A DNA stretch of 52,275 nucleotides. Origin: a virus. Lineage: Duplodnaviria; Caudoviricetes. The notes beneath the pieces were generated by a model. It worked only from the letters and a program-made list of their open reading frames with translations. It was not told the origin of the DNA and did not search any database. The stretch is taken from positions 1 to 52,275 of the IMG/VR virus record IMGVR_UViG_3300032893_000067. The stretch is one strand, 5' to 3'. Positions within the stretch are counted from its first letter, which is position 1, and every line of letters begins with the position of its first letter. A program made the position numbers and the translations under genes. This document shows, piece after piece, positions 7,433 to 22,569 of this stretch.

Positions 7433-7435
7433 TTA

Positions 7436-8869: not shown

Positions 8870-9029
8870 TTTCAGACTCCCATATGAATAAGCTATTTCC
8901 ATAAACAGGAGGTAGCATTCCTTCTTTTTCTATAAGATCCAATAGTTCTTGGGCCATTACATCTGGATACTTAATATCATTTTGCCATAAATAATCTGCA
9001 ATTTTGTTTATCATTTCACTTCGTTTCAT
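8856..9029 (-). CDS. hypothetical protein
   Basis: MKRSEMI...EKEGMLPP; trimmed start. Confidence 0.6.
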   Translation of the reverse strand: MKRSEMINKIADYLWQNDIKYPDVMAQELLDLIEKEGMLPPVYGNSLFIWESENEQE

Positions 9030-9333
9030 TTTTAGACTCCAAAACTTTTTGTAAATTTGTTCCACATTTTGTCATGCTTATATAATCTAAATGTTCGGCA
9101 GTAAAGTTTTTTAGAATATCACGTGCTGCTTTGGTAAATTTCTTAATTTGACAATCTTGTTCAGATAAAGCAATTTCAATAAGATTCTCCATTATTGTTC
9201 TCATTTTCCATGCTTCATAAATCATAATTTCCTGATAATGTTCTTTTGGAAATGATGTTTCTACTACATCAATTGCAAGTTGTCTAGCTTTAATTTTTGG
9301 ATCAAATGCCCAATTTAAATTATTTGCTTTCAT
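9016..9333 (-). CDS. hypothetical protein
   Basis: 105-aa ORF in operon. Confidence 0.6.
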   Translation of the reverse strand: MKANNLNWAFDPKIKARQLAIDVVETSFPKEHYQEIMIYEAWKMRTIMENLIEIALSEQDCQIKKFTKAARDILKNFTAEHLDYISMTKCGTNLQKVLESKNETK

Positions 9334-9443
9334 TTAACACCATCCTGCTAATTTCTCTTGCCATTAAATCAACTTGTGGCTTAATAACTTTTACATAGAA
9401 TATAATAAATAATAGATTAATTATGATTGATATAAATAATATT

Positions 9444-9647
9444 TTAAACGTCCTTAACATCTTTTAATCTCTCTTTTAAATCGTCGATATAACTTAATAC
9501 TTTATATCCTAATCCTTGATTAATAAAATCCATTGGACTTGCCAAATTAAAATGCATATGGGGAGTTGTAAGCCATGCTTTAATAACTTCTGAATCATAT
9601 CCTATATCAGTATTAAGTCTTTTAATGATCAATTCTAATTCAGTCAT
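9444..9647 (-). CDS. stand-alone Xre/MbcA/ParS antitoxin C-terminal (DUF2384-like) domain
   Basis: IKAWLTTPHMHFNLASPMDFINQGLGYKVLSYI fits the WL-x2-P-x3-(F/L)-x4-P...G-x3-V pattern. Confidence 0.7.
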   Translation of the reverse strand: MTELELIIKRLNTDIGYDSEVIKAWLTTPHMHFNLASPMDFINQGLGYKVLSYIDDLKERLKDVKDV

Positions 9648-9789
9648 TTCTTTTTCCTAAGTCTCAATAGTTCAATATAAGCTTCAGTAATATACTTTGG
9701 ATCTTTAAATAAATTCTTTATAACGCGATTTTCGTACCACCACAAATTTAACCAAAGTGCAAATAGAATTAGTACCAATAAAAATATAA

Positions 9790-10053
9790 TCATTTCAGAT
9801 ACTCCTTTAAAGACAAATCATCTAGAATTCCTTTAACAGTTTCAGGCTCACATTTAAATCTTTCACATATATCTTTTAACATAACTTGTTTACAATTGTC
9901 ATAGTAACTTTTATAAACGTCTATATGCAATACTGGATTCTCTTTATTCAATACATCTTGTAATTGATCTGTTAAATCTTTTGTAATAACTTTAAAGTGT
10001 TGCACATTGTGGATTAGGTCTCTAATCACCCATTCTTCTAATTCAATACTCAT
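9790..10053 (-). CDS. hypothetical protein
   Basis: 87-aa ORF in operon. Confidence 0.6.
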   Translation of the reverse strand: MSIELEEWVIRDLIHNVQHFKVITKDLTDQLQDVLNKENPVLHIDVYKSYYDNCKQVMLKDICERFKCEPETVKGILDDLSLKEYLK

Positions 10054-10054
10054 T

Positions 10055-10321
10055 TCAATTCACCGTTTCATTTCCAGAGCTATTAAAAGTATTCAATACA
10101 GATTCTTGAATTCTATCTGAAATAATTATAACCATATTAGTTGCGAAATAGTTATCCAATTCTTCTTTTGTTAGATTTTTTGCGAATTCTAGTCCTAGTT
10201 CTAAACAATCATCGGGCGCGAATTTTTCGCCGGTCAATATTTTTTCAGAGACGAGTTTCATAAACTTCATTTCAAGTTCATTTAATTTATTACCTAAATC
10301 TAAAGTCTTTTGTATTTTCAT
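10055..10321 (-). CDS. hypothetical protein
   Basis: 88-aa ORF with GAGG RBS. Confidence 0.6.
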   Translation of the reverse strand: MKIQKTLDLGNKLNELEMKFMKLVSEKILTGEKFAPDDCLELGLEFAKNLTKEELDNYFATNMVIIISDRIQESVLNTFNSSGNETVN

Positions 10322-10324
10322 ATA

Positions 10325-10633
10325 TTAATCCTCAAAGTTTAATGATTCATAAAAATCATCGTCATTATCATCGTAATCATCTTCATCTTCAAATAGATTA
10401 TCTGAAACATAATTCTCAATATATTCAATATCTTTTTCTGTTAATTGTTTATTAACTACTTTATTATTTTCATCATAAGCAATATATTCTATATCTTTTA
10501 CAAAGCCTCTAATCTCTCCACGGTTTCCATCAATATCATCGCCGTATTTTTCTTTTGTAAAAGTTGCTTTTGCTTCTACAAATACATCGCCTAAATTTTC
10601 TGAACCAAATTCAAATTCGATTAATTGTTTCAT
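10325..10633 (-). CDS. acidic hypothetical protein
   Basis: AGGAG RBS before MKQLIEF; Asp/Glu-rich tail. Confidence 0.65.
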   Translation of the reverse strand: MKQLIEFEFGSENLGDVFVEAKATFTKEKYGDDIDGNRGEIRGFVKDIEYIAYDENNKVVNKQLTEKDIEYIENYVSDNLFEDEDDYDDNDDDFYESLNFED

Positions 10634-10643
10634 TTTAATACTC

Positions 10644-10844
10644 CTATAGTTTAGAAATATGACCTTTAATATTATTCCAAAAGTTCTTTGTACTTTCATC
10701 AACGGCGGACTTTGACATATGATCGGCTTTTGAAAGTGCTGTCTCTTTATTTCCGACACTTGCAACAAATCCTCTTGCAAAGTCTAAAGCATCTTGAACT
10801 TTAAGTTTCTTTGGTTGAACATCTTTTTTTCCAGCATTAGGCAT
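10644..10844 (-). CDS. hypothetical protein
   Basis: AGGAG RBS, 66 aa. Confidence 0.65.
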   Translation of the reverse strand: MPNAGKKDVQPKKLKVQDALDFARGFVASVGNKETALSKADHMSKSAVDESTKNFWNNIKGHISKL

Positions 10845-11118
10845 TTGAATCTCCTTTCATTTCTTTTGGAAGTCTTGTACGAACTTCGTCTTGAAATTGA
10901 ACTCCAAGTTCTATAAGAGCTTTCTTAACTTGTTTCTTTGTTTCCGTTAAATGAATTCCTACGCCAAATTTTAATTCATTGCCGGGGTCTCTAACTTCTT
11001 CAATTTGCCATGCATTATTTGGATAAATAGTTACATAAACAAATTTATTAATAGCTAAAAGTCTTTTTGAATTTGTCAATGTTCCGTCTTCATTTCTCTT
11101 ATAAGTAACCCTAGTCAT
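10837..11118 (-). CDS. hypothetical protein
   Basis: AGGAG RBS, 93 aa. Confidence 0.65.
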   Translation of the reverse strand: MTRVTYKRNEDGTLTNSKRLLAINKFVYVTIYPNNAWQIEEVRDPGNELKFGVGIHLTETKKQVKKALIELGVQFQDEVRTRLPKEMKGDSNA

Positions 11119-11477
11119 TTAATATCTCCTTTATTATAAGACATTTTTCTATAAATTTCTAATGGATTTAAATGTTTATTTTTTATTCCAAATTTTACAC
11201 TTTTATTTTTTTCAATTAAAGTTTTAAATTGAATAAGCAATTCAGGATTTACGTTTTTATTTTTTAATACGGTTGATTTAAAAACTCTATATTTAAGATT
11301 TCCGGGATGTTTTTTATTAAATTTAATTGTTTTAATTTTACTTTTTTTCAGATATTCCCGGCGGCCAATTTTTTCACACCATTTATACCATTTTAAAGTT
11401 GCTTCAGAAATAATAGGTTTTATTGAATATTTTTGAACCCATTTAGATTTTGAATAGCGAGTATTTGGCATAGTCAT
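11115..11477 (-). CDS. basic hypothetical protein
   Basis: AGGAG RBS, Lys-rich. Confidence 0.6.
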   Translation of the reverse strand: MTMPNTRYSKSKWVQKYSIKPIISEATLKWYKWCEKIGRREYLKKSKIKTIKFNKKHPGNLKYRVFKSTVLKNKNVNPELLIQFKTLIEKNKSVKFGIKNKHLNPLEIYRKMSYNKGDIK

Positions 11478-11507
11478 TTTACATCTCCTAAAATATTATA
11501 ATACAAT

Positions 11508-11747
11508 TTAAATTTTTTTGCTATAAATAAATGAACCTTTAAACTCTCCAAATTCTGCATAGTTATGATTATTTCTTTCTAATTCAACTACAGCAATTTC
11601 TAATTCATCTAAGTTTACATTGGTTAATTTCTTTTCCCATAATGCTCGGACCCAAACAAATAAGTCCTCAACTGTTGGGCAATATCTCGCGCCAGATACG
11701 TTATAAACAAAGATATATTCTTCTTCAGATACTTTAAAAAGTTTCAT
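11508..11747 (-). CDS. hypothetical protein
   Basis: AGGAG RBS, 79 aa. Confidence 0.6.
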   Translation of the reverse strand: MKLFKVSEEEYIFVYNVSGARYCPTVEDLFVWVRALWEKKLTNVNLDELEIAVVELERNNHNYAEFGEFKGSFIYSKKI

Positions 11748-12416
11748 TTATTTGCTCCTTTTGCTTTGTAAATGTTGAACTTTTCTTATAGCTTTCATGA
11801 GATTGTAATAAGCGTGACATTGATCTTCTGTCAATCCTTCTTTTTTACCTATTTCTAAATATTTCTCTTTCCATTCTTTCATTGAATAGAAATAACAACC
11901 AATTTGAACGCCTTTTGGAAGTGAAGTAAAAAGCCAATTTAAGTTTGTTATATTTGAGCATTGATGAAATTTCTGGACCCGTGCTTTGCCAGAGACCTGT
12001 GCTTTGCCAGAGACCTGTGCATCGCCAAAGACCCGTGCTTTGCCAAAGACCCATGCATTGCCAGAGACCTGTGCATCGCCAAAGACCCATGCATTGCCAA
12101 AGACCTGTGCATCGCCAAAGACCCGTGCTTTGCCAGAGACCCGTGCTTTGCCAGAGACCCGTGCATCGCCAAAGACCCATGCATTGCCAGAGACCTGTGC
12201 ATCGCCAAAGACCCGTGCTTTGCCAGAGACCTGTGCATCGTCAGAGACCCATGCATTACCACTTTGATTCAAATTACTTTCTTTTTCTATATATCCACCT
12301 AAATCACCTTTTGTTATATAAGAAAAAGATATTAATGCGCGGATTCTAAACATTTTAATACCAAAAAATGTTTTTTCTGTTTCTAATGCTAATTCAAATT
12401 TTTTAGAATTGTTCAT
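11748..12416 (-). CDS. hexapeptide-repeat (left-handed beta-helix-like) phage protein
   Basis: FRIRALISF...KGDLGGYIEKESNLNQSGNAWV followed by G(N/D/K)A(W/R/Q)V(S/F) repeats. Confidence 0.85.
   Translation of the reverse strand: MNNSKKFELALETEKTFFGIKMFRIRALISFSYITKGDLGGYIEKESNLNQSGNAWVSDDAQVSGKARVFGDAQVSGNAWVFGDARVSGKARVSGKARVFGDAQVFGNAWVFGDAQVSGNAWVFGKARVFGDAQVSGKAQVSGKARVQKFHQCSNITNLNWLFTSLPKGVQIGCYFYSMKEWKEKYLEIGKKEGLTEDQCHAYYNLMKAIRKVQHLQSKRSK
11978..12258. repeat. 18-bp imperfect tandem repeat encoding the hexapeptide
   Basis: Units such as gtgctttgccagagacct / gtgcatcgccaaagaccc, about 15-16 copies. Confidence 0.9.
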
Positions 12417-12612
12417 CGTCTTGTCCTTCCCAAGTCACGCCAAGTAACTCGTCTATTAAGTAATTAAACATGTCATCAGCTTCTTCATAAGTTAAATCTG
12501 GTTTATAAATTGAACTATTGCCAGAAAGTCTTAAACATGTATAAGTTCTGGACTCTTGATCTCTCATTACAATTATTTCTGTGTGTAACAACTTGAACGC
12601 TTTGATTAACAT
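12403..12612 (-). CDS. hypothetical protein
   Basis: 69-aa ORF with AAGG RBS. Confidence 0.6.
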   Translation of the reverse strand: MLIKAFKLLHTEIIVMRDQESRTYTCLRLSGNSSIYKPDLTYEEADDMFNYLIDELLGVTWEGQDDEQF

Positions 12613-12624
12613 TTTACTTTCCTT

Positions 12625-12822
12625 TTAATAAATATAATCAATTACAAAATAGCCTCTTTCAGTGTTAATATATGCTACTTTTATTTCTCTATTAATTTTA
12701 AAATAGTGAATTACTTCTTTTGGAACGGTGCAAAATACTTCATGTTTTTTAGTATTAGTTGTAGCAAAAAAATATCCAAGATCTTTATTTACTTTTGTAA
12801 TTTTAGCTTTATAAAATCTCAT
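12625..12822 (-). CDS. small OB-fold-like hypothetical protein
   Basis: GAGGTG RBS; AKITKVNKDLGYFFA resembles a cold-shock/S1-type strand pattern. Confidence 0.55.
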   Translation of the reverse strand: MRFYKAKITKVNKDLGYFFATTNTKKHEVFCTVPKEVIHYFKINREIKVAYINTERGYFVIDYIY

Positions 12823-12840
12823 AAATCACCTCTCAATATA

Positions 12841-13305
12841 TTATTCGGCTTTTACGTATAAAACTTTAGATAATTTTTCAATATATTTATTTTTATGCTT
12901 TAAAGTCTTGGAATGGTACCTGCCAATCCAATTTGAATCTTTTTTAGACCATTTGGATCTTATTTCATTTAAAAGCTTCGCGGCGCAGTATGCCGATCCT
13001 TCGGGTGTCTTTAAATCAAATCCAATACATTTAGATCTATTAACACTATTGATTTGAAATATTCCTGAATCTGTGGTGCCATTTTTATTAACTCGGGTTT
13101 GAAACTTTAGACCGGATTCAACCATGCCAATAGATTCTAATAGCAATGGATCTATATGATAAGTCTGTGATGCCTGTAAAATTGCCTCTACAACTCTCTG
13201 TGAAGGCTTGTAGCCGTTTCTTTGGGCCAAATCATACATTGCATCGGTTATTTCCGAAGCGCGGCTCATAGACGATATTAAGAAGCAAATTATTAACTTA
13301 AACAT
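12841..13305 (-). CDS. lytic transglycosylase (SLT, IagB/PilT-like)
   Basis: IDPLLLESIGMVES, DSGIFQINS, AAKLL, IGRYHS; signal-like N-terminus. Confidence 0.9.
   Translation of the reverse strand: MFKLIICFLISSMSRASEITDAMYDLAQRNGYKPSQRVVEAILQASQTYHIDPLLLESIGMVESGLKFQTRVNKNGTTDSGIFQINSVNRSKCIGFDLKTPEGSAYCAAKLLNEIRSKWSKKDSNWIGRYHSKTLKHKNKYIEKLSKVLYVKAE
12842..12868 (-). promoter_or_regulatory. sigma28 (FliA)-type promoter
   Basis: TAAAGTTT-N11-GCCGAATA versus consensus TAAAGTTT-N11-GCCGATAA. Confidence 0.75.
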
Positions 13306-13495
13306 TTTTCACCAACTTTAGACATTTTTTACAGGTTACATTTAAATCTGGTCGATCACTCCATTGTATAGCAGGAACTTCGCCACATAATGATTTATAG
13401 GCATAGGAATTTTCATCCGGAACTAAATGAACTATTTTGCCTTTTCCTCTTTCAGCGCCGTTAGCTAATTTTCCAGCTTTTACCATTGTCTTCAT
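13298..13495 (-). CDS. small Zn-binding protein
   Basis: VHLV...SLCG...VTCKKC; start lies about 12 nt after a sigma54 box. Confidence 0.65.
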   Translation of the reverse strand: MKTMVKAGKLANGAERGKGKIVHLVPDENSYAYKSLCGEVPAIQWSDRPDLNVTCKKCLKLVKNV

Positions 13496-13507
13496 ATAAA
13501 TATCTAA

Positions 13508-13523
13508 TGCAAAGTGAATGCCA
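13508..13523 (-). promoter_or_regulatory. sigma54 (RpoN)-type promoter
   Basis: TGGCATTCACTTTGCA: GG-N10-GC. Confidence 0.72.
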
Positions 13524-13840
13524 ATATTAAGTTAAATATATTAGATTTGGGCGGTTATTTATTGTAGAATTTATAAACAATATTTGTAAATTATATAAAT
13601 TATTAGTTATTTCTTAGACATGTTTAAATTATTTACGTTTCCAATACTTATGGAATAGATATAGGATTGTAATAGGAATAGCTCCAGGAATTATTAAAAG
13701 GCCTAAAATAAATAATATAGTAGCCAAAAAGTTCATTTTAAAATCAATACAATTGCCATTACAGCAAATATAAAGGTTATAAATAAATTCAATTTTTGTT
13801 CACATCGCTCATGATGTTGTTTACTTGTCATTCGCATAAA

Positions 13841-14104
13841 TTACCTCAATGTTTCTTTTTTTTTGTATTTTTGTTTTTCTTTTTCATTTTTTAGCTTCCA
13901 TTTATCATAGAACTTCCCTGACATATAACGCTCTATCATAACTTCATTTGGGTTATGATTCATAAAATGAGTCTCAAACTCTTTTACGCGATTGCATATA
14001 AAAGTAGACTTTTGTTCACATAAAGGGCATACAAGACAAGCGAATGTTCTCTTAAAACAAGGATGAGTTGATAAGATTGCCATTCCAATATAACTATTTC
14101 CCAT
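13841..14104 (-). CDS. C2H2-like Zn-finger hypothetical protein
   Basis: CPLC...HFMNH; AGGTG RBS. Confidence 0.6.
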   Translation of the reverse strand: MGNSYIGMAILSTHPCFKRTFACLVCPLCEQKSTFICNRVKEFETHFMNHNPNEVMIERYMSGKFYDKWKLKNEKEKQKYKKKETLR

Positions 14105-14107
14105 AAA

Positions 14108-14422
14108 TCACCTACATTTCACACAAAAACCATCGCCTGGACTTCCCCAGGCATCGCATAACTCTTGTCCGCATTCACAATAGTTATTTTCGTAACAAGT
14201 CTGACAAAGTGTTTCGCCTAAATCGGTTTCGCTATTGCACTCATTGCAAGTATTTTCAACTCCAAATAAAATACTAAGTTTCCACCATACCAAATGTGAA
14301 TAATGTTTATATCTGTGCAATTTGAAATGAGTTATAGGTTGTAAACTATTAAATTCAATTAAGAATTTATGGTTTAATACTTTCATTTTAAGCACCTTTC
14401 TTAAATTTAGTCCTATAATCAT
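14108..14422 (-). CDS. Cys-rich hypothetical protein (start may be MKVLNH)
   Basis: CNEC, CQTC, CECG, CVKC. Confidence 0.6.
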   Translation of the reverse strand: MIIGLNLRKVLKMKVLNHKFLIEFNSLQPITHFKLHRYKHYSHLVWWKLSILFGVENTCNECNSETDLGETLCQTCYENNYCECGQELCDAWGSPGDGFCVKCR

Positions 14423-14594
14423 CTAGATTGTAAACCTTTGCATTTGGTTTCAAATCATAAAAACCCATACGCTTTTTAAGTTCACTAGATTCTTTAATAA
14501 AATTAGTTACATAAAGTGCCCAATCTTTATAACCATCTAATTCATATTGGTTAGTAATTTCTTTTTGAGTATGTAATCCAATTACTTTTCCCAT
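14388..14594 (-). CDS. hypothetical protein
   Basis: 68 aa, AGGT RBS. Confidence 0.6.
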   Translation of the reverse strand: MGKVIGLHTQKEITNQYELDGYKDWALYVTNFIKESSELKKRMGFYDLKPNAKVYNLDDYRTKFKKGA

Positions 14595-14602
14595 AAAAAT
14601 AC

Positions 14603-14872
14603 CTATTCCTTTCTTAACTTTAACATTTCTTTATTAGAATCAATTAGTATCTTTTTAAGTTCATTCATATATTTTATTTTTGTATTGACTAATCGTTTTT
14701 GTAATTCAGTTCTAACACTTTCAGTTTCAGGCATCCAAAACCCACCATCACCAAACAAATCAGTAAATGTTTTTGCTCTAATTTCAGATTCTTTAAAGTC
14801 TAATGCTTTTTCAATTCTTTCTATAAGAAGTTCATTTTCTGCTAACATTTTATAAATTTCTGCTTTAGTCAT
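14603..14872 (-). CDS. coiled-coil hypothetical protein
   Basis: GAGGT RBS, downstream of sigma28 box. Confidence 0.65.
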   Translation of the reverse strand: MTKAEIYKMLAENELLIERIEKALDFKESEIRAKTFTDLFGDGGFWMPETESVRTELQKRLVNTKIKYMNELKKILIDSNKEMLKLRKE

Positions 14873-14894
14873 AATTACCTCACTTTCAATATGC

Positions 14895-14922
14895 TAATCG
14901 GTATTATTCTTTAAATACTTTA
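14895..14922 (-). promoter_or_regulatory. sigma28-type promoter
   Basis: TAAAGTAT-N12-ACCGATTA. Confidence 0.62.
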
Positions 14923-14929
14923 GCACTTT

Positions 14930-15163
14930 TTATCCGTTCATCCAACTTTCATCGTCAATGACCTTTGGGCCAACTTTTGGGGCCGTAGTTCCATGTTTCA
15001 TGACAAAGTGACTCATTTTAGCATCAACTTTGAATGCATAATATCCACAACCATGACACTGACCTCGCTTATTTACAGTGGTTGGTTTAGGACTGTTAGC
15101 CTTTGTATCGTCGTATCGACCATCAAAGTCACATTCACATACATAAACATATTGTTTTTTCAT
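14930..15163 (-). CDS. Zn-binding hypothetical protein
   Basis: CEC and CHGC. Confidence 0.6.
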   Translation of the reverse strand: MKKQYVYVCECDFDGRYDDTKANSPKPTTVNKRGQCHGCGYYAFKVDAKMSHFVMKHGTTAPKVGPKVIDDESWMNG

Positions 15164-15177
15164 TTAACTTTCCTTTC

Positions 15178-15357
15178 CTAATCAATATCACCAGTTGCTT
15201 GGAAGCTATTCTTTGAGTTATTTGGAATAGCCCGATGCCAGCCGACAAGCTTAAGGTCTGAATGTTCCCGACCGGAATGTCTAACAGTGCCTTTCACAAA
15301 GAGCATTTCGCCTATTTTTGCACCATGATCGGCAATGTTAGGTCGATTGTTTCCCAT
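15178..15357 (-). CDS. small ORF, possibly a gene remnant (not in track)
   Basis: MGNNRPNIADHGAKIGEMLFVKGTVRHSGREHSDLKLVGWHRAIPNNSKNSFQATGDID; GC-richer than flanks. Confidence 0.5.
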   Translation of the reverse strand: MGNNRPNIADHGAKIGEMLFVKGTVRHSGREHSDLKLVGWHRAIPNNSKNSFQATGDID

Positions 15358-15359
15358 TG

Positions 15360-15536
15360 TTAATTGGAAACGTCGATCGTTTTTTGTTCTGTATATTCAA
15401 CGTCAAAAATAGTTACGTGTGGTTTAAAATTCTTAATAAATAAGTCCATGTCACTAGAATGAACATGCCACATTAATTCGCCATTATAATAAATCTCATA
15501 TTCATTTTGTTTTTCAATATAATAAGCTTCCCACAT
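15360..15536 (-). CDS. small hypothetical protein (not in track)
   Basis: 58 aa MWEAYYIEKQNEYEIYYNGEL...; GAGAGGTGATTT RBS. Confidence 0.65.
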   Translation of the reverse strand: MWEAYYIEKQNEYEIYYNGELMWHVHSSDMDLFIKNFKPHVTIFDVEYTEQKTIDVSN

Positions 15537-15556
15537 AAATCACCTCTCAAATATAC

Positions 15557-15583
15557 TATTCGGTATACTTTCAAAAAACTTTA
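15557..15583 (-). promoter_or_regulatory. sigma28-type promoter
   Basis: TAAAGTTT-N11-ACCGAATA. Confidence 0.72.
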
Positions 15584-15586
15584 GCA

Positions 15587-15751
15587 TTATTTTACTAATT
15601 TCAATTTTTGTCCAAATTTAAGCACTTTCCAAATTTCTGACTCTAAGGCCAACATATGTGGAATATCTCTGTATCGGACTGTTAGTACAAGTCTGTGACC
15701 TTTGTAGACCCTAATTTTCTGTTCTTTGCATCGTAACACAGTAAACATCAT
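15587..15751 (-). CDS. small hypothetical protein (not in track)
   Basis: 54 aa MMFTVLRCKEQKIRVYKG...; AGGGG RBS. Confidence 0.55.
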   Translation of the reverse strand: MMFTVLRCKEQKIRVYKGHRLVLTVRYRDIPHMLALESEIWKVLKFGQKLKLVK

Positions 15752-15769
15752 TATTCCCCTTTCACATAA

Positions 15770-15797
15770 TCATCGGCCAATTTAACCAAATAGTTTA
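15770..15797 (-). promoter_or_regulatory. sigma28-type promoter
   Basis: TAAA-N16-GCCGATGA. Confidence 0.5.
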
Positions 15798-15965
15798 CAA
15801 TTGATGTAATAAACAATATAGAAGTTATAGCAAGTAACATAGCATCACCTCTTAAAAAAATTTCGGGCATCTGTAACAATACTGACAATGATAATATAAC
15901 TAATACTAAATAAGCTAAGTAATATAAACAATCCTATGTATCCAAATATAAGTCCTAAAGCTAAG

Positions 15966-16157
15966 TTAATCATTTTTAGACTCCTGTTTATTTTTATATT
16001 CTCTTTTAAAGCAATAATCATCTGCGTCTTTCTCATATGCAAAACTAACATAATCAGCACCAGATTCTGCACCTTTTACGACAAATAACTCTAGTTCCTC
16101 ATCATATTGATAATATATTTCTTCATTGGGTATCTTTTTAGGCTTATACATAACCAC
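15966..16157 (-). CDS. small hypothetical protein
   Basis: GAGGTG RBS downstream of sigma54 box. Confidence 0.6.
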   Translation of the reverse strand: MVMYKPKKIPNEEIYYQYDEELELFVVKGAESGADYVSFAYEKDADDYCFKREYKNKQESKND

Positions 16158-16175
16158 CTCTTGACTTAATACTAT

Positions 16176-16191
16176 TGCATGAATTGTACCA
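16176..16191 (-). promoter_or_regulatory. sigma54-type promoter
   Basis: TGGTACAATTCATGCA (GG-N10-GC); overlaps a weaker TTGACG-N15-TACAAT alternative. Confidence 0.55.
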
Positions 16192-16404
16192 AGTAATTAT
16201 AAACGTCAATAGAACTATTGTATTGGTTTATAGGTATAAGTAATATAAGAATAGGTGATAACTAATATGACTGATTTAACTCAATTTAAACATTTTAAGG
16301 GCAATTCAAAACCCTTCTTTTTTGTATATCTTTTAAACACAAACGTCTATCTAGCTTATTTTACTAGTTATTTCTTAAACATAGATAAAACTTATACAAT
16401 CCAA

Positions 16405-16516
16405 AAGAAGAGAAAGACAGGCTTTTTTATTATTACACTACGGACAGTGGCGTTACAAACACAGTCCTTTATGTTGTAACGATTGTTGAGGTTAACTGTT
16501 CGAAACAATTGTTAAT
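16405..16516 (-). ncRNA. candidate small RNA
   Basis: No ORF after a strong sigma70 promoter; hairpin CGTTACAA...TTGTAACG with AAGGAC apical loop, plus CACTG-TCCG-TAGTG. Confidence 0.4.
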
Positions 16517-16522
16517 TTCTTT

Positions 16523-16551
16523 ATTATAACACATTTTAAATTAAAAGTCAA
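16523..16551 (-). promoter_or_regulatory. sigma70-type promoter (extended -10)
   Basis: TTGACT-N17-TATAAT with TG just upstream of -10. Confidence 0.72.
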
Positions 16552-16611
16552 GCAAATAATTCACATAGTTATATTAAGTTTATAGGGTTATAGTTGAATT
16601 TGTGTATAAGT

Positions 16612-16658
16612 AAAGGGGAAAGCCCCAGGTCAAGCGGGGGATGCTCAACCTTGGGGCT
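16612..16658 (-). terminator. GC-rich hairpin, likely terminator
   Basis: AGCCCC...GGGGCT stem followed by TTTCCCCTTT on minus strand, downstream of two small ORFs. Confidence 0.5.
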
Positions 16659-16702
16659 ATTAGAGGGTTTGCGGGGCATTTAAATAAGGACTAGAGGGAC
16701 TA

Positions 16703-16828
16703 TCAGTGGACAGGGACAATCTTAAAACCGGCATTCTCCAATCTTTGGACTGAGCCAAGCTTAGTGACAATGTCTTTAAGAGTCATTGGACCTGTTATTC
16801 TATAACCGTTCTCAACTACATAGTACAT
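16703..16828 (-). CDS. small hypothetical protein (not in track)
   Basis: 41 aa MYYVVENGYRITGPMTLKDIV...; GAGGTG RBS. Confidence 0.6.
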   Translation of the reverse strand: MYYVVENGYRITGPMTLKDIVTKLGSVQRLENAGFKIVPVH

Positions 16829-16835
16829 AATCACC

Positions 16836-16991
16836 TCATTTCAGACCACAAATATATTTATAATCAGCATTAAAAATTGTAACATCTTTGTAGCAACCAA
16901 ATCTAATGGCTTCCCAAAGAGTTACAAAGTAAGCAATTTCAATACCTTTTTCTACTACAATATAATTATAATTTATAAGATCGAATTCCAT
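16836..16991 (-). CDS. small hypothetical protein (not in track), first gene of left arm
   Basis: 51 aa MEFDLINYNYIVVEKG...; GAGGT RBS directly after sigma54 box. Confidence 0.6.
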   Translation of the reverse strand: MEFDLINYNYIVVEKGIEIAYFVTLWEAIRFGCYKDVTIFNADYKYICGLK

Positions 16992-17015
16992 AAATACCTC
17001 TTATATATATATTAA

Positions 17016-17031
17016 TGCAAAGTATGTACCA
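17016..17031 (-). promoter_or_regulatory. sigma54-type promoter
   Basis: TGGTACATACTTTGCA (GG-N10-GC). Confidence 0.72.
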
Positions 17032-17038
17032 ACAATGA

Positions 17039-17051
17039 TATCAACTACTTA
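17039..17051 (+). promoter_or_regulatory. IHF consensus site
   Basis: TATCAACTACTTA matches WATCAANNNNTTR. Confidence 0.5.
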
Positions 17052-17134
17052 GCTATATCAAAAATGTATAACTTATATACAAAAATAAATATTATTAATC
17101 AATTCACATAGTTATAAATTATACACTGTATAAT

Positions 17135-17241
17135 TGGTACACTTATTGCAAGAAGAATCTATTGGTATAAATATTGTATAATAATGCAAATACTATACCA
17201 TAATTATTGGTACATATATTGCTATTGCAAGAATCATGCCA
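17135..17241. promoter_or_regulatory. cluster of five sigma54-type boxes in both orientations
   Basis: 17135+ TGGTACACTTATTGCA; 17163+ TGGTATAAATATTGTA (imperfect); 17185- TGGTATAGTATTTGCA; 17208+ TGGTACATATATTGCT; 17226- TGGCATGATTCTTGCA. Confidence 0.68.
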
Positions 17242-17264
17242 CACATATAGAGTATAGGCAGCCA

Positions 17265-17294
17265 GGGGTAGGGGGGGGGGGGTAGACTTGGGGG
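17265..17294 (+). repeat. G-tract (G4, G12, G5) at the strand switch
   Basis: GGGGTAGGGGGGGGGGGGTAGACTTGGGGG in AT-rich background. Confidence 0.8.
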
Positions 17295-17489
17295 TTTAAA
17301 ATAACTTTACTAGTCAACACGACCATTTTTAAAATATCGACTCTAGTAACATCCCTTTTACCCCGTATTACTAAGAAATCCTATAAATAACGTTTTTGAC
17401 CTTAAATATTATCATGTATCCTATTGATTCTATTAGATCGAATATATGAGACTGAGTATATAATAAATATGTAGACAATATAGTAACAC

Positions 17490-17499
17490 TTAACAACTA
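17490..17499 (+). promoter_or_regulatory. putative phage late promoter box
   Basis: TTAACAACTA, 7 nt before ATG. Confidence 0.65.
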
Positions 17500-17506
17500 G
17501 TATTAA

Positions 17507-18043
17507 ATGGTCTCTTTACAAGAATTAAAGTCATTACCTGATTGTTGCATCTATGGGCTAATAAATAAGGCCGATAAAAAGATCTATATTGGGTATTCCT
17601 ATGACATTCTTTCCGCCTTATCTAGAAACATTAAAGACTTCAAATATAGTAACCACCCTGCAAAGGCTGACTTTGATAAGTTGGAGTTTATAATTCTAGA
17701 AACAGTTAAAGATAGGAGTAGTATAAGATTTAGATATGCCTATTGGTATGAATCCTACAAGTCTATGGGATATAGTTTCTATAGAGATTATAAGGGCAGT
17801 AAATTTAGAGTTAAAATTGACGTAGGGATGGATTTTAGGTCTGAGGGTGGGACAACCTATCTTGTATATGTGAAGTTGGTTAATAGCCGCTATAAGGAGT
17901 TTATAGTGGGTGTTTTTAGTGGTATTCAGGGGGCTAAGGAATTTGTACGTAATAAGTACCAGGATAAGAATATAGTAACAAGTATTGAATATGCCAGTAA
18001 TGATCTTACTAGGTTATATGTGAAAAGGAATTCTGATGAATAA
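17507..18043 (+). CDS. GIY-YIG-like nuclease domain protein
   Basis: CIYGLIN...IYIGYS, FIILE. Confidence 0.65.
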   Translation: MVSLQELKSLPDCCIYGLINKADKKIYIGYSYDILSALSRNIKDFKYSNHPAKADFDKLEFIILETVKDRSSIRFRYAYWYESYKSMGYSFYRDYKGSKFRVKIDVGMDFRSEGGTTYLVYVKLVNSRYKEFIVGVFSGIQGAKEFVRNKYQDKNIVTSIEYASNDLTRLYVKRNSDE

Positions 18044-18233
18044 GGCTGATATAGGAGATTGGATCTCTGTTTTAATAGGTGGATTAGTATTTGGTGGTAT
18101 TATATTTGGTGCCATTGGACTTATAATCATTAATACTTTCAGGATGATATTGAGAAGAAAAGATAGGGTTTATGAGTTAGAAGCCCCTAAAAAGAAGAGA
18201 CATTTAAGGCTTATAAGGGGAAAGAAAGAGTAA
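18036..18233 (+). CDS. small membrane protein
   Basis: One long TM and basic tail. Confidence 0.6.
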   Translation: MNKADIGDWISVLIGGLVFGGIIFGAIGLIIINTFRMILRRKDRVYELEAPKKKRHLRLIRGKKE

Positions 18234-18409
18234 TGGACTGGTTTATAGTGCTAATATTTGGATTTACATTTCTGTTTGGACTGGATCTTGTAAATAGGCT
18301 TTATTTTTATAAGAACCAATGCGACGGACTCCATAAATGGCATTATGATGACAAAGGAGATATGCGCTGTAAAACATGTAAAATAAAAGCAGCGGATAAT
18401 TTAGATTGA
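18233..18409 (+). CDS. small membrane protein with Zn ribbon (not in track)
   Basis: 58 aa MDWFIVLIFG...CDGLHKW...CKTC; TAATG coupling. Confidence 0.6.
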   Translation: MDWFIVLIFGFTFLFGLDLVNRLYFYKNQCDGLHKWHYDDKGDMRCKTCKIKAADNLD

Positions 18410-18636
18410 AATTTATAAACAAACTTCGTAACTTAATAGAGAGGTTATTAATGAAATACGATAAATGTACTCATTGTGGTCGAATACTTCATAAGGATCT
18501 TAGAGAAAATGACGTAGAGTTTTATAGGATCAATTATGAACCATATTGTTCATTAAATTGTTTTAATGACGAATCTGAAAAGAGAAAAAAGAAGCCGAGG
18601 AAGAAAAATGGAAGAAATAAATCTAAAACTTTGTAA
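18406..18636 (+). CDS. small Zn-finger protein (start may be MKYDKC)
   Basis: CTHC...YCSLNC. Confidence 0.6.
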   Translation: MKFINKLRNLIERLLMKYDKCTHCGRILHKDLRENDVEFYRINYEPYCSLNCFNDESEKRKKKPRKKNGRNKSKTL

Positions 18637-18805
18637 AGTCTGTGGGCTATTAAAGAAGAGAATATTAGCCGGTAAATGGGGTAAGGACAAGAAATGGATT
18701 GATGAAGAGGGTAAGCTTTGGAATGGAAAGCAATGCCCTACGTGTAATCAAGCTAGAGCTAAAGATAGCATGAAAAGGATGAGAAATGTTGCAAGGAATA
18801 CTTAG
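18608..18805 (+). CDS. small Zn-finger protein
   Basis: CKVC...CPTC; GAGG RBS. Confidence 0.6.
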   Translation: MEEINLKLCKVCGLLKKRILAGKWGKDKKWIDEEGKLWNGKQCPTCNQARAKDSMKRMRNVARNT

Positions 18806-19226
18806 AACAATACTGCTTAGTTTAATATTATTTATGATGATCCCAATACAACATGTTACACCAGATCTTAAACCATACCATGATCCTATTATTAAATATG
18901 TAGAGGAGCATTGTTCTCAACATCATTATTTTCATCCTCTTAAAACGTTTATTAGATTTAATAAACTGCCTTCTCCTATAATTGGATTGTGCCGTGTGGC
19001 CCCATTAGAGTATATAATCGATATAGATCCTCAATATTGGAATAATACCTCAGAAGACTTGAGATGGGAGCTAATGCTACATGAAATGTCCCATTGTATA
19101 TTTAGATTAGACCATACTGATGATCCAGATAATTATATGTATCCTGAATTAGTTGACATGAAAAAAGAAAAAGCTTGGCAACAGTTTGAAAATAATGTAA
19201 GCTACTTATGTGAAGGAGATAAATAA
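18786..19226 (+). CDS. exported metzincin (matrixin-like) metalloprotease
   Basis: Signal/TM, HEMSHCIFRLDH, Met-turn NYMYP. Confidence 0.85.
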   Translation: MLQGILRTILLSLILFMMIPIQHVTPDLKPYHDPIIKYVEEHCSQHHYFHPLKTFIRFNKLPSPIIGLCRVAPLEYIIDIDPQYWNNTSEDLRWELMLHEMSHCIFRLDHTDDPDNYMYPELVDMKKEKAWQQFENNVSYLCEGDK

Positions 19227-19459
19227 TGAAAGATTTATTGATGATTGGCGAAGATTTAAATAAAGCCCTAGCAACCGCTCATCCTGCCGACAGGGAATTA
19301 GGTAGTATGGCCCCACATTTTGCTCAAACAGATGAATATTTACGTAAACTTCTTATGGCTTGGCACGATCAAACAGATGAACATATGAAAGTTGACTTAT
19401 TAAATGAAATTCTAGATTATATTTATGAGGTTACAAGACGTGCAAATAATCGAGAATGA
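19226..19459 (+). CDS. hypothetical protein
   Basis: AGGAG RBS, 77 aa. Confidence 0.65.
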   Translation: MKDLLMIGEDLNKALATAHPADRELGSMAPHFAQTDEYLRKLLMAWHDQTDEHMKVDLLNEILDYIYEVTRRANNRE

Positions 19460-19793
19460 ACAAGTAATATTCGTTGATTGCGATGATACTTTGGTCATGT
19501 GGGATGATACATTTAGACAACCTGGAGACAATAAAATAGAAGTATTTGATCCAAATGATAGTAGTAATAATTACTTAACTCCCAATGAAAAGCATATAGA
19601 CCTCGTAAAAAAACACAAAGGAAGAGGTTATTTTGTTGTGGTGTGGAGTGCTGCTGGATATGCTTGGGCAAATTCTGTAGTCAATGCAGTAAAACTTAAT
19701 GATTACGTAGATATAGTTATGTCTAAGCCTGTTAAGTATATGGATGATCTTACGGCCAATGAAATTTTGGGCACTAGAGTCTATTTAAAATAA
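19425..19793 (+). CDS. HAD-superfamily phosphatase
   Basis: FVDCDDTL, VVWS, K...YMDD. Confidence 0.8.
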   Translation: MRLQDVQIIENEQVIFVDCDDTLVMWDDTFRQPGDNKIEVFDPNDSSNNYLTPNEKHIDLVKKHKGRGYFVVVWSAAGYAWANSVVNAVKLNDYVDIVMSKPVKYMDDLTANEILGTRVYLK

Positions 19794-19799
19794 CAACTA
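19791..19799 (+). promoter_or_regulatory. putative late promoter box
   Basis: TAACAACTA, 5 nt before ATG. Confidence 0.55.
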
Positions 19800-19804
19800 T
19801 TTAC

Positions 19805-20263
19805 ATGAAAGCTATATTTTATAAAGAACATGTTATTAATAAAAATCATTATATTGAATATGAACTAAAAATTTGTCATAAATGCAACAAAACCAAATCT
19901 TGGAAAGACTTTAGTAGGAAGATAAAAGGTATTTTTGGTCTTCAACCTAATTGTAAAGAATGTTCTAAAAAATGGTGGTCTGAAGATCCTATTCGTCAAA
20001 AAAAGATTCAAAAAAATTCAAAGTTAAAAGCAAAATTTAATTTAACATTAGATCAATATAATGAAATTTTGACTCATCAAAATGGGAAATGTGCTATATG
20101 TCACAAAGTACAAAATAATGTTTCATTAGCTGTAGATCATTGTCATAAAACTGGAAAAATTCGTGGTCTATTATGTGGACCATGTAATCAATCCATTGGT
20201 CTTCTTAAAGAGGACTTACAAATTATTGAAAATTTAAAAGATTATTTAGAGAAATATAAATGA
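19805..20263 (+). CDS. endonuclease VII-family HNH nuclease
   Basis: QNGKCAIC, LAVDHCHKTGKIRGLLCGPCN. Confidence 0.9.
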   Translation: MKAIFYKEHVINKNHYIEYELKICHKCNKTKSWKDFSRKIKGIFGLQPNCKECSKKWWSEDPIRQKKIQKNSKLKAKFNLTLDQYNEILTHQNGKCAICHKVQNNVSLAVDHCHKTGKIRGLLCGPCNQSIGLLKEDLQIIENLKDYLEKYK

Positions 20264-21078
20264 ATAATAAACTTGAAAATAACGAAATTGATCTAAAAAG
20301 AACCGAAGATAAGTATATTCTAGATAAATCCCAATTACAAATAGTAAAACATAAAATTGAAACCTACCTACCACCTTATTATCCAGATAAAGGTGTTATT
20401 TATTGTATTAATAAATCAATTTATTTTGATTCTCCAGACCTAACTTTCCTTAAACAACATCTAAATAAAGTCGATGATAGACGTAAGATTCGTATAAGAA
20501 CCTATGCTCCTAATGGCAAATGGAACAATATTTATTTTATTGAAATCAAGTCTAAATCAGATGGAAAAAGTATTAAAACAAGAATTGAACTTACTCCAAA
20601 AGCATTTCAAGAAGTAATGAGAACAAATCAAATTCCAATTGATGCAGATCTCATAGAGCTTAATAAAGATGTCCCAAAAGACCAGCTATTACAGCGTGCA
20701 AAACTTATAAATTACACAATGTTAATTAATAAAGTTAGTCCTGTATGTGAAGTTACTTATAAGAGGTATGCCTACCAAGAACACGAATCATTACGTGTCA
20801 CTATTGATTCAGAAATAAAAGTTCGACCACTTAAAATGATCAAATTTAATGTTATAGAAGATTTAAAGAACCAAGATCTTTGGGATGAACTAAAAGAATA
20901 TGGTGAGAAGTTCTATAATCAAGACAATTTTCTTCTAGAAGTTAAACATGAAAAGAATAATATTCCACAATGGCTAGAAGATTTAATTGAAAAATTTGAT
21001 GGTGAATGCCAGGGCTTTTCAAAATATGTCTGGGGCATGTTTCAAATAATGAGTAATACTCTTAAACTTTTAAAATAA
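20260..21078 (+). CDS. VTC-domain (CYTH/triphosphate tunnel) protein
   Basis: RTEDKY, SIYFDSPD, RRKIRIRTY, FIEIK, VTYKRYAY, RVTID, LLEVK, FSKY. Confidence 0.88.
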   Translation: MNNKLENNEIDLKRTEDKYILDKSQLQIVKHKIETYLPPYYPDKGVIYCINKSIYFDSPDLTFLKQHLNKVDDRRKIRIRTYAPNGKWNNIYFIEIKSKSDGKSIKTRIELTPKAFQEVMRTNQIPIDADLIELNKDVPKDQLLQRAKLINYTMLINKVSPVCEVTYKRYAYQEHESLRVTIDSEIKVRPLKMIKFNVIEDLKNQDLWDELKEYGEKFYNQDNFLLEVKHEKNNIPQWLEDLIEKFDGECQGFSKYVWGMFQIMSNTLKLLK

Positions 21079-21248
21079 ACGTGCCTACTTACGAGAGTGT
21101 GGGCGGGTGTCACATACCTGGGCGAGCATAAACGGGCGAAACTTTCAAATCTATCGTAACGTATGCAACGTACTTATCTTAGTTTTATAGATTTTGCACA
21201 TGATTAGAATAGGTAATTAGTTGAAGTTGTGAGACTGGCAGGCTGCTG

Positions 21249-21500
21249 CTATTTCTTTTCCCATGGTCTTATAGATCCTTCGGCATCCCACAGCGAGCAG
21301 CACATTCGACTTGAAACAGGTTGTAAAACCTTTTTATTCATACAATAGCCAACTTTTTTCTTAGGATCAATAATTTCATTGAACTTACAATTAAAGCAGT
21401 TTGTACCTTGGACATCTTCTGGAAGAGTTATTAGATCAGCGGCCTCTGCTTTTTTTAAACTTTCTTCATTTTGTGGATCAATTCCGCCTTTTTTATTCAT
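21249..21500 (-). CDS. small Cys-rich protein, HiPIP-like Cys spacing
   Basis: GTNCFNCKF...GYC...VSSRMCCSLW. Confidence 0.55.
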   Translation of the reverse strand: MNKKGGIDPQNEESLKKAEAADLITLPEDVQGTNCFNCKFNEIIDPKKKVGYCMNKKVLQPVSSRMCCSLWDAEGSIRPWEKK

Positions 21501-21931
21501 GGTCTAAAGCTCCTTATAGGACGATCTGTGCGTTGGCCACAATCTAGATGGCACCAGTTTGTATTCTTTCCACGAGTAGAATCCTTATCTTCCACCCATA
21601 ATCCATATTTTCTTAATAAATCAGATTTATTTGGCACTAATTTAGCTAAAGATTGATCTTTATCATCTAGGATATCAACGGCCAAACCCATCATATGTAG
21701 ACTTCTTTTAGCACTATTTGGAGTGTTTGCATTAACTGAAGGTGGTCGCCAGCCAGATGTAACTTGTGCTGATTCTATACCCAATTCATTTAAAAAAGCA
21801 TTAACTTTAGCTAGTAATTTAACTGCATTATCCTGGATTTGTTGATTAAAATCATTAGGATATTGTTTTCTACGATCTTTTTTACTAATAAAATCAGTAA
21901 AGTATGCGTCTAATGTGATTAATTCTTGCAT
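21497..21931 (-). CDS. peptidase M15 family endolysin
   Basis: VTSGWR, SLHMMGLAVDI, WCHLD. Confidence 0.88.
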   Translation of the reverse strand: MQELITLDAYFTDFISKKDRRKQYPNDFNQQIQDNAVKLLAKVNAFLNELGIESAQVTSGWRPPSVNANTPNSAKRSLHMMGLAVDILDDKDQSLAKLVPNKSDLLRKYGLWVEDKDSTRGKNTNWCHLDCGQRTDRPIRSFRP

Positions 21932-22071
21932 TTTTTCCTCTTATATTTAATTATGCGCTTAACAACCTTTTTCATGAAGCCACAAGATGGGCATTTTAGC
22001 CACATGTCATTCTTCACATACTGCATGTAAGATCCACACTCACTGCAGACCTGTGATTGTTTGTTATCCAT
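21919..22071 (-). CDS. small Zn-ribbon protein (not in track)
   Basis: 50 aa MDNKQSQVCSECGSYM...LKCPSCGFMKK. Confidence 0.65.
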   Translation of the reverse strand: MDNKQSQVCSECGSYMQYVKNDMWLKCPSCGFMKKVVKRIIKYKRKKCKN

Positions 22072-22079
22072 TCATTAAA

Positions 22080-22089
22080 TAGTTGTTAA
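22080..22089 (-). promoter_or_regulatory. putative late promoter box driving lysis cassette
   Basis: TTAACAACTA on minus strand. Confidence 0.65.
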
Positions 22090-22148
22090 CACTATATTAT
22101 TTAAAAATTTCAAATGAAAGACTTTAAGGAAATTAGCTAGTTCTAGCA

Positions 22149-22158
22149 TTAACAACTA
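22149..22158 (+). promoter_or_regulatory. putative late promoter box
   Basis: TTAACAACTATATA. Confidence 0.7.
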
Positions 22159-22284
22159 TATATAGATACGTTCAGGCAATACTGATAGCCGCTAGTGCGG
22201 TAATTGGCCCTAGGCCAGAAAAAAGAGCAGTTTACGCCTTTGAGACTATCATTTTTTACAATTTATGTTATTTAGGAGTTAAAG

Positions 22285-22569
22285 ATGGAATTGAGAAAAA
22301 GCGCACCATTGATACTGTTTTGTCTCTATTTTGCTAAACTTGCTCTTTTAGCACCAACTTATACAGATGCAGCTATTTTATTAATTTTAGGTGCAACTGC
22401 GGGTTTATTTGAATTTAAATCAAATGAAAAGAAAATAAAAGATCTTGAGCAACTTTTAGTAAATCAACAAAAAGAATTAAGTAAAACAACTGAAGAAATT
22501 TTAGCAATTAAATCTCATGTTGCTAGTATTAAACTTGCAACAAATATTAAATCAACTTCATTTAGATAA
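22285..22569 (+). CDS. two-TM protein with coiled coil (holin/spanin-like candidate)
   Basis: Two hydrophobic segments then heptads; AGGAG RBS; near endolysin. Confidence 0.5.
   Translation: MELRKSAPLILFCLYFAKLALLAPTYTDAAILLILGATAGLFEFKSNEKKIKDLEQLLVNQQKELSKTTEEILAIKSHVASIKLATNIKSTSFR

Follow-up and report, generated by a model that had tools for sequence, protein, structure and literature searches.

The 52,275-bp linear viral contig IMGVR_UViG_3300032893_000067 of IMG/VR (hereafter the window, meaning the whole stretch analysed; estimated to be 61% complete, ~32% G+C) carries a dense array of 16-nt boxes resembling sigma-54 (-24/-12) promoter elements, and we propose, with a probability of roughly 0.55, that these boxes are docking sites and promoters for the host sigma-54 RNA polymerase holoenzyme. 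The array lies in a 515-bp untranslated region between two diverging gene arms, and four of its five boxes face each other in pairs. Viral contigs contain many such pairs and bacterial genomes very few, a distribution suggestive of a hitherto undescribed phage use of the sigma-54 polymerase. Sigma-54 is a tightly gated host system for nitrogen use, flagella and stress responses, among other programmes, and to our knowledge phages do not build on it. No account of sigma-54 sites on phage DNA came up in full-text literature searches, in agreement with the initial annotation of this DNA, a model's reading of the letters that knew of no described phage element of this kind. The novelty of the element would thus be the paired, arrayed architecture of its putative sigma-54 sites. 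What the sequences show directly is the match to the consensus, the enrichment of boxes, their promoter-like geometry, their conservation in distant relatives and the uneven distribution of pairs between viral contigs and bacterial genomes; sigma-54 binding, activation and every functional consequence discussed below are what we infer from these patterns.

The box array and the sigma-54 consensus

We scanned both strands for the box pattern TGGYA-N7-TGYW, using 100 dinucleotide-preserving shuffles as background. The whole window contains 16 matches against a shuffle mean of 3.83 (standard deviation 1.88, largest 9), and 0 of the 100 shuffles reach 16. Six of the 16 matches fall within 226 bp, with a Poisson P of ~1e-10 for one such span and ~3e-8 when corrected for all spans. 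These six boxes, the elements around them and two further boxes at promoter positions are:

13508-13523, minus strand: leftward box, TGGCATTCACTTTGCA; 13 nt to ATG 13495 and 22 nt to ATG 13486
16176-16191, minus strand: leftward box, TGGTACAATTCATGCA; 25 nt from the C of GC to ATG 16151, with a GAGGTGG Shine-Dalgarno sequence within
17016-17031, minus strand: box 0, TGGTACATACTTTGCA; candidate promoter of the leftward operon
17039-17051, plus strand: match to the integration host factor (IHF) consensus, TATCAACTACTTA, between box 0 and the array
17117-17135, no strand: perfect 9+1+9 palindrome, AATTATACA-C-TGTATAATT; arms 17117-17125 and 17127-17135, 100% complementary
17135-17150, plus strand: box 1, TGGTACACTTATTGCA; reads rightward
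17163-17178, plus strand: box 2, TGGTATAAATATTGTA; GT at -12, face to face with box 3, 6 nt between the two 16-nt boxes
17185-17200, minus strand: box 3, TGGTATAGTATTTGCA; reads leftward
17208-17223, plus strand: box 4, TGGTACATATATTGCT; left arm of the face-to-face pair 17208-17241 (TGC and TGCA 3 nt apart)
17226-17241, minus strand: box 5, TGGCATGATTCTTGCA; the most sigma-54-like box of the array
17265-17294, plus strand: G-run module G4-TA-G12-TAGACT-T-G5 (G4 17265-17268, TA, G12 17271-17282, TAGACT 17283-17288, T, G5 17290-17294); non-template strand for the rightward boxes

The initial annotation had reported boxes 1 to 5 in the order +,+,-,+,-, with exact GG-N10-GC spacing except for one GT, flanked by a perfect palindrome and a G-tract. 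All five were recovered where it had placed them, box 2 is the box with GT, and both flanking elements are present; the shuffle comparison it had proposed, run here with the box pattern, puts the density well above chance. It was also right that most boxes have no open reading frame (ORF) directly behind them, as 17032-17506 holds just 5 ORFs of 20-41 aa, none of them gene-like. Box 0 it had missed; the C of its GC lies 25 nt from ATG 16991, with an AAGAGGT Shine-Dalgarno sequence within. Boxes 2 and 3 face each other, as do boxes 4 and 5, and the -12 elements of pair 4/5 are 6 bp apart. The palindrome adjoins box 1 and has a TATAAT hexamer on each strand.

A reading of the face-to-face pairs as hairpins or cruciforms was dropped upon inspection of the sequences: the arms do not pair through the spacers, and the conserved part is therefore the box rather than a hairpin. 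The would-be rightward leader 17234-17420 gives no structure signal (folding z = +0.84), and an Rfam scan of 15500-18500 returned just two chance-level matches.

The eight good boxes of the window yield the consensus tTGGTA(C/T)A-N4-TTGCA(T/A)TA, where the A at position 5, the GG, the G and the C are invariant or nearly so. GG and GC are exactly ten bases apart in seven of the eight; the eighth is box 2. Two elements separated by one helical turn are the layout of sigma-54 promoters. The sigma-54 sites mapped by chromatin immunoprecipitation (ChIP) in Salmonella follow TGGCA(C/T)(G/A)-N4-TTGC(A/T), and they include TTGT variants at pspA and pspG comparable to box 2 (PMC3844500). Against the extended consensus YTGGCAC(G/A)-N4-TTGCW, six of the eight window boxes have T for C and six have A for G. 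The canonical TGGCAC(G/A)-N4-TTGC form is present in relatives and in many other viral contigs, and the box 5 16-mer, identical or with one change, occurs in unrelated viral contigs, in Pseudomonas putida phage phiPMW and in Vibrio phage D419.

Positions left free by the searches follow the sigma-54 profile as well. Among 159 unique arms of pairs, 87% have C or T at position 6 and 89% have G or A at position 7, a share that rises to 98% for the 127 arms in the strict set defined below; T occupies position 12 in 67% of arms, and the pair centre is A/T-rich. Over the free or half-free positions, arms in other viral contigs fit the extended consensus with C at 80%, Y at 87%, R at 89-98% and T at 67%. 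A sigma-54 (-24/-12) character of the boxes beyond GG-N10-GC is thereby supported at the level of sequence. Bacterial sigma-54 promoters and sites, as in the Salmonella and E. coli ChIP regulons, have the same bipartite motif, the ten-base spacing of GG and GC and the TTGT variants, and besides lone sites at promoter distance from genes they, too, include additional sites that no gene follows. Unlike them, the phage boxes are clustered and face to face, with -12 elements 5-6 bp apart and often a 54-bp tandem arrangement; no enhancer or activator was found for them, and T stands where C is usual in most of the window's boxes.

Outside the cluster, eight of the ten pattern matches lie inside ORFs, and the remaining two, 16176-16191 and 13508-13523, are in intergenic gaps. 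Together with box 0 they make three intergenic boxes, all directed at an ORF start; 16176-16191 and box 0 share an identical geometry, exactly 25 nt from GC to ATG. With GC 13-25 nt before the starts, the three leftward boxes are compatible with -24/-12 promoters. A sigma-70 reading, with TTGGTA as the -35 element, was rejected because the implied transcription start would land inside the Shine-Dalgarno sequence. The earlier view that there are more sites than transcription needs is partly countered: three further boxes stand at promoter positions, and the boxes of the array belong to conserved face-to-face pairs. Its suggestion of a loading platform for leftward promoters fits best if box 17016-17031 is taken as the proximal promoter of the leftward operon.

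Two other features were noticed on the minus strand close to these boxes. At 16523-16551 there is a near-consensus sigma-70 promoter (TTGACT, 17 nt, TATAAT, with an upstream TG; 11 of 12 positions), separated from box 16176-16191 by ~370 nt with no ORF. At ~16620-16660, after ORF 16703-16834, a GC-rich hairpin (AGCCCCA ... TGGGGCT) looks like the terminator of a two-gene operon starting at box 17016-17031; the lack of a T-run after it kept the terminator scan from calling it.

Recurrence of the pairs in other phages

The array with its G-run recurs in two distant relatives, G001 and L215, whose large terminase subunits (TerL) are 36-39% identical to that of the window. In G001 (85,057 bp, a circular assembly with a 62-bp overlap, TerL 36% identical), three boxes (-,+,-) occupy 76836-76904, and the pattern read backwards finds 0 matches. 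One pair aligns with the window's pair 4/5 at equal spacing, and the array is adjoined by TAGACT and a G-run, GGTTAGACTAAGGGGAGGG. It is located between co-oriented genes and followed by a 1.3-kb ORF-poor stretch, a sigma-70-like promoter and small early-type genes; the 8 other pattern matches of G001 are all in its structural arm. L215 (TerL 39%, portal 48% and major capsid protein 46% identical to the window) has three face-to-face pairs, then G6TGGTG6TGAGGG and AGACT, plus single boxes, one of which is directed at the first gene of the next block. Because array and G-run are shared by all three despite the distance of their terminases, we regard them as one putative module that has persisted over deep divergence while the neighbouring genes changed. 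The search for the same array in related phages that the initial annotation had called for thus found it. No counterpart of the 9+1+9 palindrome was detected in G001 or L215.

As for the IHF-like site, consensus matches number 7 in the whole window on both strands. They occur near the arrays of L215 and of the viral locus L070 and are missing near those of G001, viral locus L067 and phiPMW; the evidence for an IHF site is weak because the relatives so inconsistently have one nearby.

Some features of G001 were noted in passing. A sigma-70 promoter resembling that of the window (TTGACT, 17 nt, TAAGAT) precedes its early genes (L054, 12002-12030), and the ORF-poor stretch (L054, 11160-11400) has direct repeats of its own, ACTTATAAGA... 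and GATAAACTA..., of iteron-like look.

Beyond these relatives, face-to-face pairs with a gap of NN occur in 104 stretches of viral contigs and those with NNN, the window's own pair 4/5 spacing, in at least 119, while the gap-NN pattern read backwards finds 4; these counts are descriptive, because the loci are not phylogenetically independent. A strict 36-nt palindrome, TTGGCAY-N5-TTGC-N4-GCAA-N5-RTGCCAA, is found in at least 120 viral stretches and in 9 stretches of 596 Gb of bacterial and archaeal genomes. Five of these 9 are copies of one Leptospira repeat, a GC-rich element present in three species with the strict pair at its centre and located at contig ends (L288, L289, L292, L294, L295); the copies are probably a repeat or small mobile element. 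The viral loci span 30-68% G+C, and the strict set comprises 99 distinct pair sequences in 119 loci. In 9 loci the pair is repeated in tandem with a 54-bp period; L331, L342, L336, L348, L367, L236 and others have two to four strict pairs spaced in this way (52-63 bp, about five helical turns).

We compared the surroundings of the gap-NN pairs in 80 loci, taking ORFs within ~4 kb of the pair and grouping them by single-linkage BLAST clustering. A terminase large subunit is encoded near the pair in 31 of the 80 loci and a T7-type primase-helicase in 16. The window's TerL matches none of the ORFs near the pair in these loci at E<=1e-5, and at the same threshold just three or four scattered matches connect proteins of the window or G001 with the 80 neighbourhoods. 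Since the element-bearing loci have unrelated terminases, the element is not bound to one packaging system.

After the pairs of L067 and L070 comes a G-run; a sigma-70 promoter of consensus type, directed into genes, stands another 100-250 nt away. A further repeat (TGCTGCATTGCAACATAG-like) adjoins the pair of L070 at 2380-2570 in three to four copies, ending in the G-run; similar copies are present in L075, L105 and L119.

The element is also found in cultured phages. In phiPMW, pairs stand at ~8.5 kb and at 18.3 kb and one single box at 8649; all three places are non-coding leaders with a sigma-70 promoter downstream, and the genome totals 10 boxes against 2 control matches. In 285 records of T5-like Vibrio phages the element is matched twice per record; in one of them, phage D419, the boxes are located between the A2-like gene and the rightward genes, alongside three DnaA boxes. 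Pseudomonas and Vibrio, the host genera of these isolates, have rpoN. Among phages related to the gap-NN set, a Pelagibacter phage has 1 box and a Roseobacter and a Ralstonia phage have 0 each. The searched text of the phiPMW paper (PMC5587285) has 0 occurrences of 'sigma54', 'sigma-54' or 'RpoN', and the box region of D419 corresponds to what a preprint on T5 describes as repeat regions 1/2 (10.1101/866236).

The sigma-54 reading and its rivals

We interpret the boxes as sites for the host sigma-54 holoenzyme. One consensus is kept across loci of differing base composition and unrelated terminases, and a conserved host protein is therefore the likely binder; the consensus is that of sigma-54. 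The three single leftward boxes would act as ordinary -24/-12 promoters with starts ~12 nt after GC, giving short leaders that carry the Shine-Dalgarno sequence (14 nt for the 25-nt geometry if GC is -12). The footprint of a sigma-54 closed complex reaches roughly from -34 to -5. With -12 elements only 5-6 bp apart, a face-to-face pair could therefore accommodate just one holoenzyme at any moment, facing either way and forming a stable closed complex. We envision the array capturing scarce sigma-54 polymerase beside the proximal leftward promoter, poised for both directions; transcripts leaving rightward would, after 30-130 nt, enter the conserved G-run, whose Gs are on the non-template strand. 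An enhancer-binding ATPase would be required for firing and would presumably come from the host, because none was found to be phage-encoded: Pfam and PHROG scans of ~50 window ORFs revealed no sigma factor, RNA polymerase or AAA+ activator. Stable sigma-54 closed complexes without an activator have been described, and concentrating a scarce enzyme has been raised as a possible role of secondary sigma-54 sites (PMC3844500).

Several points weigh against this reading. Six of the eight window boxes have TGGTA and not TGGCA, whereas the Salmonella intergenic sites are nearly all TGGCA (PMC3844500), and with T for C the affinity for sigma-54 may therefore be lower. The early genes of both the window and G001 have good sigma-70-type promoters, which puts the need for sigma-54 transcription in question, and in G001 no box stands directly before an ORF. 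The two boxes of one face-to-face pair cannot be occupied or fire together. In the five phage records scanned (window, G001, the L067 contig, phiPMW and D419), 0 of 5 encode an enhancer-binding ATPase (PF00158) and 0 of 5 an RpoN DNA-binding domain (PF04552), and no upstream activator site was recognised. The viral loci share descent to some degree, and the reading presupposes rpoN in the window's host, for which there is a weak lead to a Gram-negative, low-GC bacterium, the host of the nearest isolate being a Silvanigrella.

The best-surviving alternative, which we hold to be unlikely though to be taken seriously, is that the boxes bind a phage-encoded protein such as a small terminase, replication initiator, repressor or partition protein, with a coincidental likeness to sigma-54 sites. 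Lambda cosB consists of terminase-binding R sites and an IHF site beside the G-rich cosN. The window recalls it in having several 16-bp sites of mixed orientation, an IHF-like site beside the array and an adjacent G-rich element. The tandem copies of 9 loci, repeated every 54 bp, have an iteron-like appearance, and a binder could be encoded in the missing part of the 61%-complete contig. Contig ends bear on this too: in whole contigs, canonical pairs lie within 150 bp of an end in 8 of 38 cases (1.7 expected) and within 500 bp in 17 of 38 (5.7 expected), compared with 4 of 33 (1.5 expected) and 8 of 33 (5.1 expected) for non-canonical matches, an enrichment that might stem from genuine termini or else from assemblies broken at G-runs and repeats. 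Unlike cosB, however, the window's array is 6.3 kb from the TerL start, the element accompanies unrelated terminases with almost no neighbourhood proteins in common, and its consensus is that of a host sigma factor, reproduced at search-free positions. Single asymmetric boxes also exist, in the window at promoter distance from start codons. If the boxes do bind a phage protein, they would still be among the most widespread conserved non-coding elements in uncultured phage genomes.

A bolder version of the sigma-54 reading, which we consider rather improbable, holds that many unrelated phages carry a sigma-54 docking module (pairs, often in tandem and often with a G-run) that serves something other than ordinary expression: a stalled transcript would prime replication, or a parked polymerase would anchor or protect the first-entering DNA. 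In its primer form this would be a bacterial counterpart of the mitochondrial promoter-plus-G-block primer.

The related proposal of an R-loop replication origin, in which G-rich RNA stays hybridised and primes DNA synthesis, is compatible with sigma-54 recognition and, as an account of the element, seems to us improbable. Origins of this type are known from ColE1, from T4 oriF and oriG and from the mitochondrial light-strand promoter with its conserved G-rich block. The window resembles them in that a promoter, here putative, reads into at least two G-runs on the non-template strand, tens of bases downstream in a non-coding region: boxes 1, 2 and 4 all point into 17265-17294. A G-run follows the array in G001 and L215 as well, the untranslated regions are long (515 bp in the window, 1.3 kb with other repeats in G001), and the T7-type primase-helicase is nearby in the 16 gap-NN loci mentioned above. 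The strand of the G-runs is informative here. Taking the strand that reads away from the pair and looking for a two-run G motif within 120 nt, we found an outward G-run in 31 of 81 canonical loci as against a C-run in 4; with identical pairs removed the figures are 24 and 4 of 69, and in the strict set 16 and 4 of 99. Such a bias suggests that the coupling is directional, so that RNA started at the pair would be G-rich. Yet most pair loci have no G-run within 120 nt (16-38% have one), and an enhancer-dependent sigma-54 promoter, unlike those of the known origins, would be odd for priming. GC skew is uninformative: in G001 it tracks gene direction without switching at the array, and in the window it switches where gene direction does. 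DnaA boxes give 0 matches in 16901-17600.

Quite improbable, in our view, is a pure decoy, an idea of the initial annotation, whose sites would drive no transcription and would soak up the small sigma-54 polymerase pool as phage DNA multiplies, turning host programmes off. The sites do exceed one promoter's needs, box 5 is close to optimal, as are its copies elsewhere, tandem arrays in other phages reach four pairs, no phage activator was found, and the reported stability of closed complexes without an activator (PMC3844500) would suit such a role. A decoy, however, explains neither the three boxes at promoter positions nor the G-run strand bias, which it does not require; 2-10 sites per genome are few, and mutually exclusive face-to-face sites would halve the binding capacity.

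A first-entering genome end, or an injection-stop or packaging boundary anchored by a host protein as in the DnaA-box model for T5, is the least probable reading. The initial annotation had placed the array beside the probable genome end, a claim we do not retain: nothing marks 17.2 kb as a physical end in this incomplete contig. The T5 terminal-repeat untranslated regions do resemble the window's in being long, repeat-rich, situated between divergent early operons and furnished with arrays of sites, putative in the window, for a host protein, and further in being conserved amid varying neighbours with a homing endonuclease gene inserted beside them (10.1101/866236; the window's candidate is a weak GIY-YIG match). 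The T5-like Vibrio phages combine sigma-54-like boxes with three DnaA boxes in such a region, between the A2-like gene and the rightward genes, whereas T5 has paired DnaA boxes in conserved inverted repeats of its injection-stop region and no sigma-54-like boxes in its terminal repeat, and the window has sigma-54-like boxes and 0 DnaA boxes in 16901-17600. The enrichment near contig ends and a contig from a second sample that stops inside the G-run would suit an end, but the array is internal in the circular G001 assembly, phiPMW has pairs at two internal places, and contig breaks at G-runs and repeats are common assembly artefacts.

Should host sigma-54 polymerase indeed be what the boxes bind, a large set of phages, including the cultured phiPMW and the T5-like Vibrio phages, would possess a dedicated interface to it that is conserved from lineage to lineage. 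Phage phenotypes that depend on rpoN in ways other than receptor loss could find their explanation here, and it would become apparent how phages time or condition early transcription or replication on the state of the host. The pair would offer engineering a compact bidirectional promoter, silent until activated, and the coupling to G-runs would make transcription-primed origins directly testable in these phages.

Gene arms, host and strain variation of the window

The minus-strand arm extends from 1 to 16991 with many small ORFs and encodes an ERF recombinase, a PD-(D/E)XK nuclease, a dCMP deaminase, an S8 peptidase and an SLT lysozyme. The rightward arm begins at 17507 and includes endonuclease VII-like proteins, a VTC-domain protein, TerL (23523), portal (25014) and the major capsid protein (35697). 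No tRNAs were found in the window. The nearest cultured phage, CP017838.1, infects Silvanigrella aquatica and is remote (TerL 32%, capsid 29% identical); it has one box-pattern match, and the array was not found in it. A blastn search with 16000-19000 gave no cultured-phage match, neither the GIY-YIG ORF nor the VTC protein brought up relatives when used as protein seeds, and the TerL search yielded relatives of only ~36% identity.

The first rightward ORF (17507-18043, plus strand) weakly matches GIY-YIG (E 2.5e-4; 21.7 bits, below the Pfam cut-off of 22.6). If it is a homing endonuclease, it adjoins the repeat region much as the HNH gene is placed between T5 repeat regions 1 and 2. On the minus strand, 38670-41143 contains a PagL-like lipid A deacylase, an RNA ligase and a polynucleotide kinase-phosphatase, a tRNA-repair set with an outer-membrane lipid enzyme that suggests a Gram-negative host; G001 has an RtcB ligase 3 kb from its array in place of the window's ligase and kinase-phosphatase set. 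A 222-aa YdcK beta-solenoid or bactofilin-like protein is encoded at 11748-12416 (minus strand), where long overlapping ORFs on both strands probably reflect repetitive coding sequence. Between the portal and capsid genes lies an 825-aa ORF (30686-33163, plus strand) that matched no Pfam or PHROG family and contains a box-like match at 32269-32284, oriented in frame.

We also aligned Logan contigs of four wetland sequencing runs to 12500-22500 of the window; no RNA run was among those listed as containing the stretch. In run X2, three contigs span 16810-17276 with zero differences, the last of them being the one that stops within the G-run. Run X1 leaves the bins from 16842 to 19847 almost uncovered, which proves nothing, as only part of that run was read. 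At 14166-14390 a second contig with 43 differences is present in runs X1 and X3, with an X1 depth of 51.7 against ~19, which suggests either a mobile piece in common or a related strain of greater abundance.

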